Source: Cenarchaeum sp. (GTDB lineage Archaea > Thermoproteota > Nitrososphaeria > Nitrososphaerales > Nitrosopumilaceae). Taken from it: 64,000 bases of DNA. This document shows, piece after piece, positions 1 to 3,354 of this stretch (positions within the stretch are counted from its first letter, which is position 1; every line of letters starts with the position of its first letter). The stretch is taken from the NCBI GenBank assembly GCA_965242695.1, contig CBDESU010000002.1:864001-928000 (forward strand). Direction: 5' to 3'. The translations under genes and the position numbers were made by a program. The notes below the pieces were generated by a model that was not told the origin of the DNA, did not search any database, and saw only the letters and a program-made list of their open reading frames with translations.

Positions 1-977
1 TGATCAGCGCGTCGATGACGGCCGCGTGCGCGGGGCCGCCGTCCTTGACGGGCGAGGCCAACGCCCCCTAGTCAAACCCTGCCGGTATAACCCTTGCGGC
101 GGACAAAGGCCGGCGCGGGGTCGGGGCAATCCGGCTTGCGTTTTCCTCCTGTAGGCGCGCCCCTTCCCGCCGCCCGCCCTCCGCCGGGAACCGGCGGGGG
201 CGGGGCGCCGGACGCCGGGGATCGGCCCAAGAGGCCGGCGGCATACGTTGATAGGCGCCCCCCGCTCCCCCAAGCCGATGGACAGGGAAGAGTACGACCG
301 GCAGGAGGACGAGGAGCCGTTTGATGCGGTGCGCAGGATGGCGGTTCCGCCCCCCGCCGGCGCCGAACTGGACCGCCTGATCCTGGAGACCAAGGTGCAG
401 GCGCTGGCGCGCGTTGCAAAGGAATACGCAAGCAATCTTGGCGGCGGTCATGGCGAGTTCCTGAGAGCCGTAAAGTGCGACGTTCCGGATATGCCGTCTC
501 GTACTGCAAGCATCGGTATGGCGGCAGCGTAAGCTCGCTCCTGAAGTGGCACTCTGCCTGGCCCTCCACGTTGCGGAGCGGGGGGAGTGGCTCGGCAGGG
601 CCATACAGCTCATGCTCGAGAGCGCCGACAGCGCCGGCGACGAGCGCAGGGCGTCGTCGTACCTCGTGATTGCGCACAACCTGAACCGGTGGCACGGCTG
701 CCGGATGGACGATGCGGTAGCCGGCTCCGCCATGTGGCTTGCAAGAGGGCGCAAGGACAGCCGGTTTGCCCACATCTATGCACGCGTTGCAGCATGCGCC
801 GAAAAAAACCCCAAGACGAGGGACGAGCTGCGGGATGCGATGATCCGCCGCGCGGCCCGCTCCGATCTCCCTGACGCGCGGCGTTTTCTCGAGGCGGCAA
901 TTCAGGCGGCCGCGGACAGGGGACCTGCCAGGCTTGCATACATGTACACATGAAAAACCCCGGGGCGGGGGCGGGGC

Positions 978-1096
978 TGTGGACCGACCCCTTCAACCGC
1001 GTGGGCATTGTTCCCTTTTGCATGAATGGGGCGAATCGAGCTGCTGTGTAGCTGGGCATTGTTCCCTGATAGGTGCTTGCAGCCTCCGGTCCAACA
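978..1096. ncRNA. Predicted bridge RNA of the IS110 element (target loop + donor loop)
   Basis: Two hairpins share TGGGCATTGTTCCCT (1002-1016, 1053-1067), flanked by sequences matching the target (CAACCGC/TGCATG) and the donor junction (TGTGTA/ATAGGTG). Closing stem GGACCG/CGGTCC. Transcribed strand not established. Confidence 0.65.
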
Positions 1097-1137
1097 CCGC
1101 CCACCAGGGCATCATCCGCAAGGAGGTGAATTGAAGG

Positions 1138-2241
1138 ATGGTATATATTGGAATCGACATATCAAAGCGTAAGTGTGACGTGTGTACAGTCGACGCAAAG
1201 GGCAAGGTGCTCGAGAGGGGCCAGTACTCCAACACGCCGGAAGGCGCCAAGAAGTTCGCGGCCTCGCTCAAGCGCAAGTATGGACGTCGGCGCCCCGTCG
1301 CCGCGTGCGAGACGACCGCCAACATGTGGCAGGTCTCGTACGCCGCGTTCGAGGATGCTGGCATCGACATAAAGCTTGCCGACACGTACAAGATGGTGCT
1401 CATATCGCGGACCGCGAAGAAGACCGACAAGGTCGACGCCGAAAAGATAGCGCAGGTGCTGCGCATGGGGATGCTCCCCGAGTGCCACGTGCCCGATGCG
1501 GGCACAAGGGCACAGCGCCAGCTCATCCGGCGAAGGGTTTCGCTGGGCCAGGACAGGACACGCGCGACCAACCGGCTGCGCGCGCTCCTCGACATGCACG
1601 GCAGAACGGTCGACGCCTCGCGCCTGTACCTGAAGAAGGCCATGGCGCAGCTGAGCGGCATGATACTCGGCAACGGCGAGGACAGCGTGGACACGGCCGT
1701 GCTGCGGTCGCATGTGAAGCAGATCGCCTCGCTCAACGACGGCATCGAGGATGTGGAGCGAAGGATCGACGTAGAGGCGGCGGCCGACGAGGACGCCGAG
1801 CTGCTCATGAGCATCACTGGATTCGACGCATACTCTGCCATAGCTCTATCGGCGGAGATCGACGACATTTCCCGCTTCGAGACTCCCAAGCAGTTCATCT
1901 CGTGGGCCGGCCTGTGCCCGATAGTTCGGCAGTCCGGCGACGAGGTGCACCACGGCGGGGTCAAGAAGATCGGCAGGAACCGCACCGTAAACTGGCTCCT
2001 CACCGAGGCGGCCAACACCGCGGTGCAGCACGATCCCCGCATGAAGGACGTGTACAAGAAAGCGAGGGCGAGGCATGCCGACAAGCATGCCCCCGCCATA
2101 GTCGTCGTCGCCAACAAGATGGCGACTATCGCGTTCTATGTGCTAGTGAGCCGCAAGCCGTACACGCACAGCAACACGCCGAGGTACGATCGCAAGCTCA
2201 AGAGGTTGCGCAGTCGAGCCAAGAAGAACGACGATGCGTAG
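1138..2241 (+). CDS. IS110 family DEDD recombinase/transposase
   Basis: MVYIGIDISK, ACETT, KTDKVDA and GLCPIVRQSG (catalytic Ser) motifs; SD AGGAGGTGA at 1121. Confidence 0.95.
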   Translation: MVYIGIDISKRKCDVCTVDAKGKVLERGQYSNTPEGAKKFAASLKRKYGRRRPVAACETTANMWQVSYAAFEDAGIDIKLADTYKMVLISRTAKKTDKVDAEKIAQVLRMGMLPECHVPDAGTRAQRQLIRRRVSLGQDRTRATNRLRALLDMHGRTVDASRLYLKKAMAQLSGMILGNGEDSVDTAVLRSHVKQIASLNDGIEDVERRIDVEAAADEDAELLMSITGFDAYSAIALSAEIDDISRFETPKQFISWAGLCPIVRQSGDEVHHGGVKKIGRNRTVNWLLTEAANTAVQHDPRMKDVYKKARARHADKHAPAIVVVANKMATIAFYVLVSRKPYTHSNTPRYDRKLKRLRSRAKKNDDA

Positions 2242-3354
2242 TGGAGGAGGATGTTTGCCGCCGCCGCTAACGCGGCGGCGTGACCCTCCGCGAAGCCGTT
2301 GGAAGCGCAGGGTGGGGGAGCCTGCGTACGCGGGCGCGCTAGACATATAGCAACCCACGCCTGCGGCGCGGCTGGACCGGATGTCTTCTCCCAACTTCGC
2401 CCCGCCCCCGCCCCGGTTTTTTCATAGGTGCGGCTGTGCGAGCGGCGCGCCGACGGCGAGCGGCGCGCGCCGCAGAGGGCGCACGGCTACAACGAGGCGC
2501 TGCGCCACGCCGACGGGCGCGGGGACCGCGAGAGGCTGGCCGGCAAGGTGGTAGAGGCCGCGCGGCTGGCCGAGTTTGCCGATTACGCGGATGCCTGCGA
2601 GGAGCCTGCGCTGGAAATACCGGGCCAAACCGGCCCCGAGCGGGCCAGGGGCCTTGCCGCCGCGCTGTCCTGCATTGTGCTGCCCGCTCGGATGATCCGG
2701 CGGGACGGCGGCGGGGATGCCGCCGGCGCCGGCGGCCGCGCCGAAGTGGCCGGGCGCTGGGCCCATTCTCTGGCCGCGTACGTCTCCGCAGTCGCGCGCG
2801 CCTGCGAGGACGGCGGGCGGATCTCGGCGGACGACCACGTGAGCTGCATAATGTCCTCCGGGCTTGGCATCGGCCGTGCAGAGGAGGCCCTGATCAGGGC
2901 GGGGATTGAGAGGCACTACGACGGGGACTATGCGTCTTCGATCCACATACTGATGCCGCAGGTAGAGTCGACGCTCAGGGCAGTGCTCGGGCAAAAGGGC
3001 GCCGATGCTGCCGGCGGGGACGGGCCGCCTGCTCGGACTGGCGCGCTACGCTCCATGATCGAGGGGGGCGAGGGCATCCTGGGGGGCGACCTTGCCGCGT
3101 TTCTCCATGTGTGGCTTGCGGGTGCGGACTCTGCCAACCTGCGCGACAGGGTCTGCCACTGCCTGTACGGGGACGGCGGGGAGGCAGGGGAGGAATGCGC
3201 GCTGCCGCGCGAACTCAACCACGGCAACTCCCTGGCCCTGATACTTGCCATCGAGCTGCTCTCTGGCGCATGCTCGAAAGACCGTCCCGCCCGACGGGGG
3301 CCGGCGACGCGGTGAGCCGGCGCCCTCGGAGCGCCTGACAAGCGGCGCCCTGCC

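Follow-up and report, generated by a model that had tools for sequence, protein, structure and literature searches.

We analysed a window of 64,000 nucleotides (nt) from Cenarchaeum sp. (GenBank assembly GCA_965242695.1, contig CBDESU010000002.1, positions 864,001 to 928,000 of the forward strand) that holds, on its + strand, an insertion sequence of the IS110 family together with the gene for its recombinase. We conclude with high confidence that positions 978-1096 of this window, upstream of the recombinase gene, encode on the + strand the bridge RNA (seek RNA) of the 1,486-bp element, whose host is an ammonia-oxidising archaeon. For these positions a preliminary description had proposed a bridge RNA in which loop 1 binds the target and loop 2 the donor, and this proposal is now backed by structural covariation among 16 sequences and by covariation of guides with DNA across 44 insertions. 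All the coordinates and strings of that description (stems, guides, twin hairpin, junctions and repeats) are present in the sequence.

The element and its host

As read from the sequence, the element occupies window positions 945-2430, a length that includes the right-hand copy of a TG core. This core is found at both junctions (943-944 on the left and 2429-2430 on the right), such that the left junction reads ...GCATACA-TG|TACACA, with the element starting at 945, and the right junction reads ...CATAGG-TG|CGGCTG. The insertion splits a host open reading frame (ORF) in frame, and deletion of 945-2430, with one TG, restores the frame (L A Y M | R L C E, resuming at 2431). A Pfam search with both halves of the interrupted ORF returned no family. 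The features are listed below, in which loop 1 carries a right and a left target guide (RTG and LTG), loop 2 a right and a left donor guide (RDG and LDG), P1 to P5 are the helices of the predicted RNA and R1 is the covariance model described in the next section.

937-944, +: left target flank and TG core, CATACA-TG, at the end of the split host ORF 546-953
945-2430, +: whole insertion sequence, 1,486 bp; RDG 6/6, LDG 7/8, inverted repeat 9/10
945-950, +: right donor TACACA, the first 6 nt of the left end and partner of the loop-2 5′ guide
954-977, +: left sub-terminal inverted repeat of 24 nt, first rich in A and then in G+C, with 92% complementarity to 2399-2422
978-1096, +: predicted bridge (seek) RNA gene, outer stem P1 around a target-binding and a donor-binding module, by covariation; model R1, 109 bits at 976-1097
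981-986, +: P1 5′ strand GGACCG, pairing with CGGTCC at 1087-1092; helix 1, 8/9 pairs change on both sides across relatives
988-992, +: P2 5′ strand CCCCT, pairing with 1026 and 1028-1031, T1027 bulged; helix 2, 100% of cells paired
994-1001, +: predicted RTG CAACCGCG, complementary to the top strand of the core and right flank TGCGGCTG
1002-1016, +: inner hairpin P3 of loop 1, first twin 15-mer; helix 3, 4/4 pairs change on both sides
1016-1024, +: predicted LTG TTTTGCATG, same sense as the left flank and core and would thus pair with the bottom strand
1040-1044, +: P4 5′ strand GCTGC, pairing with GCAGC at 1079-1083; helix 4, invariant
1045-1050, +: predicted RDG TGTGTA, exact reverse complement of 945-950 (6/6)
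1053-1067, +: inner hairpin P5 of loop 2, second twin 15-mer; helix 5
1069-1075, +: predicted LDG ATAGGTG, the same sequence as the element's final 7 nt, core included
1121-1129, +: Shine-Dalgarno-like AGGAGGTGA, conserved in nearly all relatives, about 30 nt past P1
1138-2241, +: recombinase gene, 367 aa, DEDD RuvC-like domain (PF01548, 4.8e-27, 95.1 bits) and Transposase_20 (PF02371, 1.9e-23, 83.1 bits), both above cut-off
2399-2422, +: right sub-terminal inverted repeat, pairing with 954-977
2423-2430, +: left donor and core CATAGG-TG, by sequence reading
2431-2436, +: right target flank CGGCTG, where the host ORF resumes (to 3315), by sequence and ORF reading

The sub-terminal repeats are inset from the ends of the element by 6 nt on the left and by 4 nt plus the core on the right.

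The host genome (3.89 Mb, two contigs, 67% G+C) contains archaeal AmoA (393.7 bits), which is matched in none of 14 control genomes, and the host is therefore an ammonia-oxidising archaeon. An archaeal small-subunit (SSU) rRNA model also has a full-length match in the genome (1450.5 bits); however, this match is not discriminating on its own because all 14 controls, bacteria included, match as well. Sponge metagenomes are among the public runs that hold the element. The preliminary description was right in placing the element in an archaeal host, but counting this as unusual did not hold, given that 662 archaeal IS110 recombinases have been counted (Vaysset 2024; here and below, what is said of cited papers refers to the portions of their text available to us).

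The recombinase gene begins 42 nt downstream of the RNA gene. Its product matches the NCBIfam equivalog NF033542, 'IS110 family RNA-guided transposase', at 236.8 bits against a cut-off of 140, and in the PDB it matches its distant relatives ISCro4 (2.5e-16) and IS621 (1.1e-11). Across 27 family proteins the residues D7, E58, D97, D100 and S266 hardly vary, and they align with ISCro4; we take the first four to be catalytic residues. The serine of the SG motif has been described as catalytic (Siddiquee 2024, PMC11187229). The recombinase has relatives at E ≤ 1e-20 in 70 of the 401 genomes that we sampled from the class of the host; one of these 70 (G283, unpublished) was left out of all other analyses. 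A search of genome contigs for related loci returned 32 distant bacterial relatives only, with 22-32% identity.

A predicted two-module RNA upstream of the recombinase gene

Both modules of the predicted RNA are built to the same plan, in which a stem leads to an internal loop and a small inner hairpin. The loop-1 stem strings are CCCCTTC (988-994) and GAATGGGG (1024-1031), whilst the inner hairpins are two copies, 100% identical, of the 15-mer TGGGCATTGTTCCCT at 1002-1016 and 1053-1067. These identical loop scaffolds had been singled out in the preliminary description, and the trait recurs among relatives: 16 of 41 distinct elements have two inner hairpins that share at least 85% identity, with hairpin stems that differ by lineage (GGGC, GUGC, GCAC and CGGC). 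This pattern suggests that the inner hairpins of both modules evolve in concert, and that two recombinase dimers may read the target and donor modules by one RNA surface.

The same scaffold, with variable loop segments, lies upstream in 29 fetched homologue loci. In a 16-sequence alignment (A1), 93.5% of cells are paired; the corresponding values are 82.4% for shuffles and no more than 50.1% for slid partners. Moreover, 18 of the 28 pairs change on both sides, and none of 500 shuffles reaches any of five measures of covariation; P4 is uninformative here because it is invariant across the alignment. Covariance model R1 matches 26 of the 29 archaeal homologue loci, in each case upstream of the recombinase gene. 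Two of the three misses are without upstream sequence, cut by contig ends, and the third (L064) has no match. After more copies had been fetched there were 65 matches in 69 loci, and the five matchless loci hold more distant or partial recombinase copies. Across a sample of the phylum R1 matched 6 of 151 genomes, including 4 of the 19 from the host's own family, and on the 32 distant bacterial loci it gave no convincing match (best E 0.76). The host genome itself has four matches, namely the window, two copies of a sister element whose recombinase is 41-42% identical, and one deletion derivative.

Covariation is blind to the difference between RNA and single-stranded DNA, and the two-loop structure could in principle be a folded single-stranded DNA or a protein-binding site at the left end, with guides pairing DNA to DNA as in IS200/IS605. 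No transcript was seen, and no RNA run is among the public runs listed for the window sequence. However, the protein matches the RNA-guided transposase of the IS110 family at equivalog level and is related to IS621 and ISCro4, for which experiments have shown RNA guidance (Durrant 2024, PMC11208160; Siddiquee 2024, PMC11187229), and a Pfam scan of the recombinase found no HUH/Y1 transposase domain. We therefore rank a DNA structure below every other explanation considered, as highly improbable, and treat the structure as an RNA.

It is similarly necessary to ask which strand would be transcribed, since the stems and guide matches are symmetric under reverse complementation. A functional RNA made from the minus strand would carry guides that are the reverse complements of those listed, pairing with the opposite DNA strands, and its fold is nearly as stable (-41 versus -44 kcal/mol). 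Wobble-type mismatches in the guide-DNA pairs, at 44 versus 33, are not decisive and do not separate the strands. The helices favour the + strand, on which they tolerate 69 G:U/U:G cells against 18 A:C/C:A cells with one doubtful outer P4 pair omitted, or 69 against 36 with that pair. Moreover, all 25 of 25 full loci have the RNA and the recombinase gene in the same mutual orientation, which speaks for a conserved arrangement and not for transcription as such. Minus-strand guides would also have a polarity opposite to those of IS621 (Durrant 2024, PMC11208160), whereas the + strand pairs as in both published types. A minus-strand RNA thus seems to us very unlikely, and the + strand is, judged from these sequence patterns, very likely the transcribed one.

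Several observations concern the non-coding ends of the element. An A/T-rich box at window positions 951-960 (TGAAAAAC; TGTAAA, TGATAA or AGTATAT in relatives) forms the first bases of the left sub-terminal repeat. In most elements the left end spans 29-33 nt before the start of the model, so that the box lies about 24 nt ahead of P1, with little variation. This spacing resembles that between an archaeal TATA box and the transcription start. We speculate that the box of the left repeat (TGAAAA, TGTAAA, TGATAA or GTATAT) could double as an archaeal TATA box, in which case a promoter at the circle junction need not be the only source of the RNA, and the integrated element could produce it too. 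At the other end, the non-coding sequence, by arithmetic from element and gene lengths, measures about 120 nt in 1,402-bp elements, 189 nt in the window and about 425 nt in a 1,683-bp element of genomes G117 and G335; in the 189 nt of the window element R1 finds no RNA. A 17-nt inverted repeat with 82% complementarity links 1085-1101, which includes the P1 3′ strand, to 2365-2381 in the non-coding right end, the latter resembling the P1 5′ strand (GGCTGGACCGGA). Either a long transcript could pair in this alternative way, or the repeat could be a vestige of the RNA having moved between ends. In one locus (L098, G117:C1:242277-244729) a right end (...ACAGATG) directly adjoins the left end (AAAGCCTGTAAATCC...) of a different element with its own R1 match, forming a tandem with a TG common to both.

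Guides and insertion sites

In the window copy the donor guides of loop 2 fit the element's own ends: TGTGTA is the reverse complement of TACACA (RDG against left end, 6/6), and ATAGGTG repeats the last 7 nt of the element (LDG against right end and core, 7/8), both as first described. By our own arithmetic, 119 nt would contain both an exact 6-mer match and an exact 7-mer match by chance with a probability of <2e-4; covariation across the family is the stronger argument.

We extended the comparison to relatives, placing element ends from the donor guides, the inverted repeat and a TG at both ends only. Placement of the left end by the left target guide alone had misplaced the window copy and several others, and was replaced by joint and then by donor-only placement. 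Of 59 elements 44 were accepted, leaving out L084, L089, L090, L092-L095, L081, L086, L050, L087, L085, L048, L063 and L069, and target guides were compared with the six flank bases beside the core. The LTG, on the 3′ side of loop 1, matches its cognate left flank at 4.68/6 on average versus 1.78/6 for non-cognate flanks, and the reverse complement of the RTG, on the 5′ side, matches its right flank at 4.14/6 versus 1.69/6; in both cases none of 10,000 permutations reaches the observed value (n=44). Loop-1 covariation with insertion sites among copies and homologues had been named in the preliminary description as one check to make, and these figures answer it. Related copies are not independent events, which a class-level test addressed: the result is unchanged with one event per guide class (29 classes).

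The donor guides likewise change along with the ends they would read. Right ends TAGG, TAGA, TGAG, TGGA and ACAG pair off with LDG sequences AUAGGUG, AUAGAUG, AUGAGUG, AUGGAUG and ACAGAUG, respectively, whilst left ends AACACA, AAAGC, AAGGC, GAAGC, ACTTTA and ACCTTA pair off with RDG sequences UGUGU, GCUUU, GCCUU, GCUUC, UAAAG and UAAGG.

Retargeting can be followed within single genomes. The 1,683-bp element of G117 and G335 occurs in two loop-1 guide versions. Copies with version 1 (guides UCAAUUGUG and, as reverse complement, TGCAACAA) sit at sites of the form ..AATTGTG | CAAC.., with one at ..GGAATTGTG | CAACAAAG, whereas those with version 2 (UUCCUACUG and, as reverse complement, TGGAAGGT) sit at ..CTACTG | GAAGGTGC or GAAGTACC. 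The same pattern is present in G304, G152 and G036. Near-identical elements in one genome that differ in their loop-1 guides and lie in correspondingly different sites are a case of natural retargeting. Two copies in G012 (L089 and L090) are without the 8 nt with which a left end usually starts (AACACATG) and have the left junction ..GATTCATTTG|GAAAAACATCC, to whose left flank their loop-1 3′ guide (TTCATTTG) fits 8/8. The upstream flanks of both copies are alike, and a larger segment containing the element may therefore have been duplicated.

The fold, by covariation, the four guide-DNA correspondences across relatives and the natural retargeting are thus direct results of this analysis. Production of the RNA, its binding by the protein, circle formation and the chemistry we infer by homology to IS621, ISEc11 and ISEc21. 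On that model the element would excise as a circle joining ...CATAGG-TG-TACACA... (in longer form ...TTTTTTCATAGG-TG-TACACATGAAAAA...), and the RNA would probably be cut from the 5′ part of the recombinase transcript and then bound by the recombinase. Loop 2 would read the junction of right end, TG and left end in the excised circle and loop 1 the target. The DEDD/Ser recombinase would bring donor and target together, and strands would be exchanged at the common TG core without target duplication.

A number of points weigh against this reading, beside the undecided guide-DNA wobble counts and the lack of a listed RNA run given above. The single-sequence minimum free energy (MFE) of the fold is not better than that of shuffles (z -0.47 on the + and -0.33 on the - strand), so that the fold is supported by covariation and not by thermodynamics, and an Rfam scan found no family at 978-1096 even at E up to 10. 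The 15 dropped elements were those whose donor features gave no clean TG-flanked ends, some of which fit their own guides by eye (for example L092-L094, RTG 6/6), and in 5 of the 44 accepted insertions the RTG matches only 0-2 of 6 positions. The corresponding figures for RDG and LDG (4.98/6 and 5.07/6) are biased because the donor guides helped to place the element ends. Lastly, in the window copy itself the target match is imperfect: the reverse complement of the RTG fits the right flank 5/6 and the LTG fits the left flank and core 5/8 (TGCATG versus TACATG, as given in the preliminary description), CAACCGC(G) and TTTTGCATG having one or more mismatches to these flanks. The genome has one full copy only, and the predicted ideal target TGCATGCGGTTG occurs in it once.

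The last two points would also be expected if the family were guided by bridge RNAs but the window copy were an inactive relic, left as the sole full copy, with a decayed deletion derivative and two solo right ends elsewhere in the genome, and with flanks that fit its own target guides imperfectly. However, the 367-aa ORF is intact with all near-invariant catalytic residues kept, the donor guides fit the ends 6/6 and 7/7, and the fold is intact. Moreover, contigs from two other public runs contain this element too, flanked on either side by different sequence (past 934/941 and 2429/2433), which suggests other insertion sites, although contigs are weak evidence. We therefore regard a relic as unlikely. 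Four 14-nt motifs from the foreign flanks had no match in the host genome, and no joint indicating an empty site or a circle was present in the contigs of four public runs. A variant of the element in run X10 has three listed differences within 978-1096, at 997 (RTG), 1019 (LTG) and 1074 (LDG), none in a stem, the last also found in one X3 contig; the table from which these come holds the best-supported differences only, with 46 more beyond it, and they are no more than a hint. An unrelated 134-nt skip at 2575-2710 was seen in one contig of the four runs.

The partial copies in the host genome are as follows. The deletion derivative of about 190 bp (G000:C1:1013277-1013464, - strand; loci L002, L003 and L075) shows 79-89% identity to the window element and consists of the left end, loop 1 and the 5′ half of loop 2 joined to the last ~72 nt of the right end, without the recombinase gene. 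It reads GGATCC-TG-TACGTA ... CACAGG-TG-CCGGCGG at its ends and scores 31.8 bits with R1; its loop-2 5′ guide (TGCGTC) has changed along with its left end, and its loop-1 guides fit its own flanks badly. The solo right ends lie at G000:C2:1226218-1226267 (- strand, 50 nt at 90%) and G000:C2:296828-296856 (+ strand, 29 nt at 100%), and both end ...TTTTTTCATAGGTG. No left end or gene is near either in the BLAST table, and they may be remnants or products of partial recombination. The sister element has a full copy at G000:C1:708212-709692 (+ strand) and a second, at G000:C1:1346139-1347267 (- strand), that breaks off about 1,127 bp in from the left end. The loop-1 3′ guide of the sister element, TCATGCTTG, fits both left flanks 8/8, and its 5′ guide fits the sole available right flank poorly in register. 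A fourth and more distant IS110-family recombinase gene (28% identity) lies at G000:C1:683252-684208 (- strand), with no R1 match nearby.

Comparison with known systems

Our literature search found no bridge or seek RNA of an archaeal element, nor this combination of traits, although supplements of the papers concerned (Durrant Supplementary Table 5 and Siddiquee Supplementary Fig. 2) may hold one. A 2026 preprint (10.64898/2026.10.21.760802) covers 32,190 bridge RNAs with 86 covariance models, many of which depart from IS621; the part of it available to us makes no mention of guide order, archaeal clades or an arrangement of upstream RNA with IS1111 order. Right-guide-first order and archaeal IS110 recombinases are already known; what is less usual is to find the RNA upstream in an element with long sub-terminal repeats, and to find twin loop scaffolds. 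The bridge-RNA concept is unchanged by these data, and specialists would expect such RNAs in archaeal IS110 elements. Nevertheless, within the literature searched, bridge and seek RNAs have so far been demonstrated for bacterial elements only, and here a populous archaeal family has four guides that can be read directly and is retargeted naturally within single genomes. We consider this clean family worth keeping for its retargeting series, for an IS110-type RNA position combined with IS1111-type guide order and repeats, and for its near-duplicate modules. If these elements do make up an architectural class of their own, as considered below, the symmetric scaffold of about 115 nt would be a compact and naturally retargeted design, and a short scaffold with two near-identical modules may interest engineers of bridge recombinases. 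Moreover, the family bears on the proposal that IS110 recombinases and archaeal Nop5 are linked (Vaysset 2024) and helps to explain gene disruption in sponge-associated ammonia oxidisers.

The nearest named relative is ISHvo9 of Haloferax volcanii pHV4 ('IS110-like element ISHvo9 family transposase'), which is among the best plasmid protein matches listed at 31.9% identity over 93%. None of the 100 plasmid matches listed, of 841, is named IS4321, IS5075 or another element of the IS1111 group. ISHvo9 has a non-coding region of about 230 nt upstream and an 11-12-nt sub-terminal repeat, and its right end CCATAGG-TG matches CATAGGTG in its upstream region (by eye, in one copy). This region folds as an outer stem with two modules (z -4.63), the second of which has a much longer inner hairpin than in the element of the ammonia oxidiser, and R1 gives no match on it (best E 0.25).

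Compared with IS621, whose bridge RNA is also described by Hiraizumi et al. 2024 (PMC11208158), the archaeal element is alike in having its predicted RNA in the left end, upstream of the recombinase and on the same strand, with two internal loops of which the first is for the target and the second for the donor, and with a dinucleotide core (Durrant 2024, PMC11208160). Guide lengths are also similar, at 7-9 and 5-8 nt versus 8-9 and 4-7 nt in IS621, and the guides pair with the same DNA strands (PMC11208160). However, in IS621-type loops the guide for the bottom strand (8-9 nt) is on the 5′ side and that for the top strand (4-7 nt) on the 3′ side, whereas in the archaeal element this order is swapped within each loop and the top-strand guide is 5′ (PMC11208160). 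The archaeal repeats are 24 nt versus 2-3 bp, its RNA is about 115 nt versus the 150-250 nt stated for bridge RNAs, the scaffolds of its two modules are near-identical, its host is an archaeon, and the two proteins align significantly over the N-terminal domain only.

Two of these differences are likenesses to the IS1111 type (ISEc11, ISKpn4 and ISPa11). IS1111-type seekRNAs have the top-strand complement 5′ of the bottom-strand complement, whilst the IS110-type ISEc21 has the order of IS621, and long sub-terminal repeats are the defining IS1111 trait (PMC11187229; PMC11208160), given as 7-17 bp (PMC11208160). Guide order, long sub-terminal repeats and natural reprogramming among relatives are features in common with the archaeal element (PMC11187229). 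The order of right guide before left guide, which the preliminary description reported correctly, is therefore not the unusual feature it was taken for. In contrast, the seekRNA of IS1111-type elements lies downstream of the recombinase gene (PMC11208160, PMC11187229) and the archaeal RNA upstream. The pairing of an upstream RNA with IS1111-type sub-terminal repeats, likewise called unusual at first, is present and less usual, but an upstream non-coding region is on record as a rare exception in ISMtsp17, and ISHvo10 and ISAcp5 have long non-coding regions on both sides (PMC11187229). These three resemble the archaeal element in the position of the non-coding region only, compared by description, as the available text describes neither RNA structure nor guides for them (PMC11187229).

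We conclude that the element belongs to the IS110 family in the broad sense, based on both Pfam domains, NF033542, the conserved DEDD and C-terminal Ser residues, the lack of target duplication, a common TG core (TG at both donor-placed ends in 44 of 59 relatives) and a covarying two-loop RNA. Its traits cross those that separate the IS110 from the IS1111 type, namely RNA position, repeat length and guide order. It has two of three IS1111-group features tested, sub-terminal repeats (at 24 nt, beyond the quoted 7-17 bp) and guide order, with a downstream RNA lacking, and one of three IS110-group (IS621-like) features, an upstream left-end RNA, with neither the guide order of IS621 nor repeats that are absent or 2-3 bp. 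It is possible, though doubtful at present, that the elements of ammonia-oxidising archaea make up a third architectural class of the IS110 family, in which IS1111-type guide order and long repeats are combined with a left-end RNA of two near-duplicate modules.

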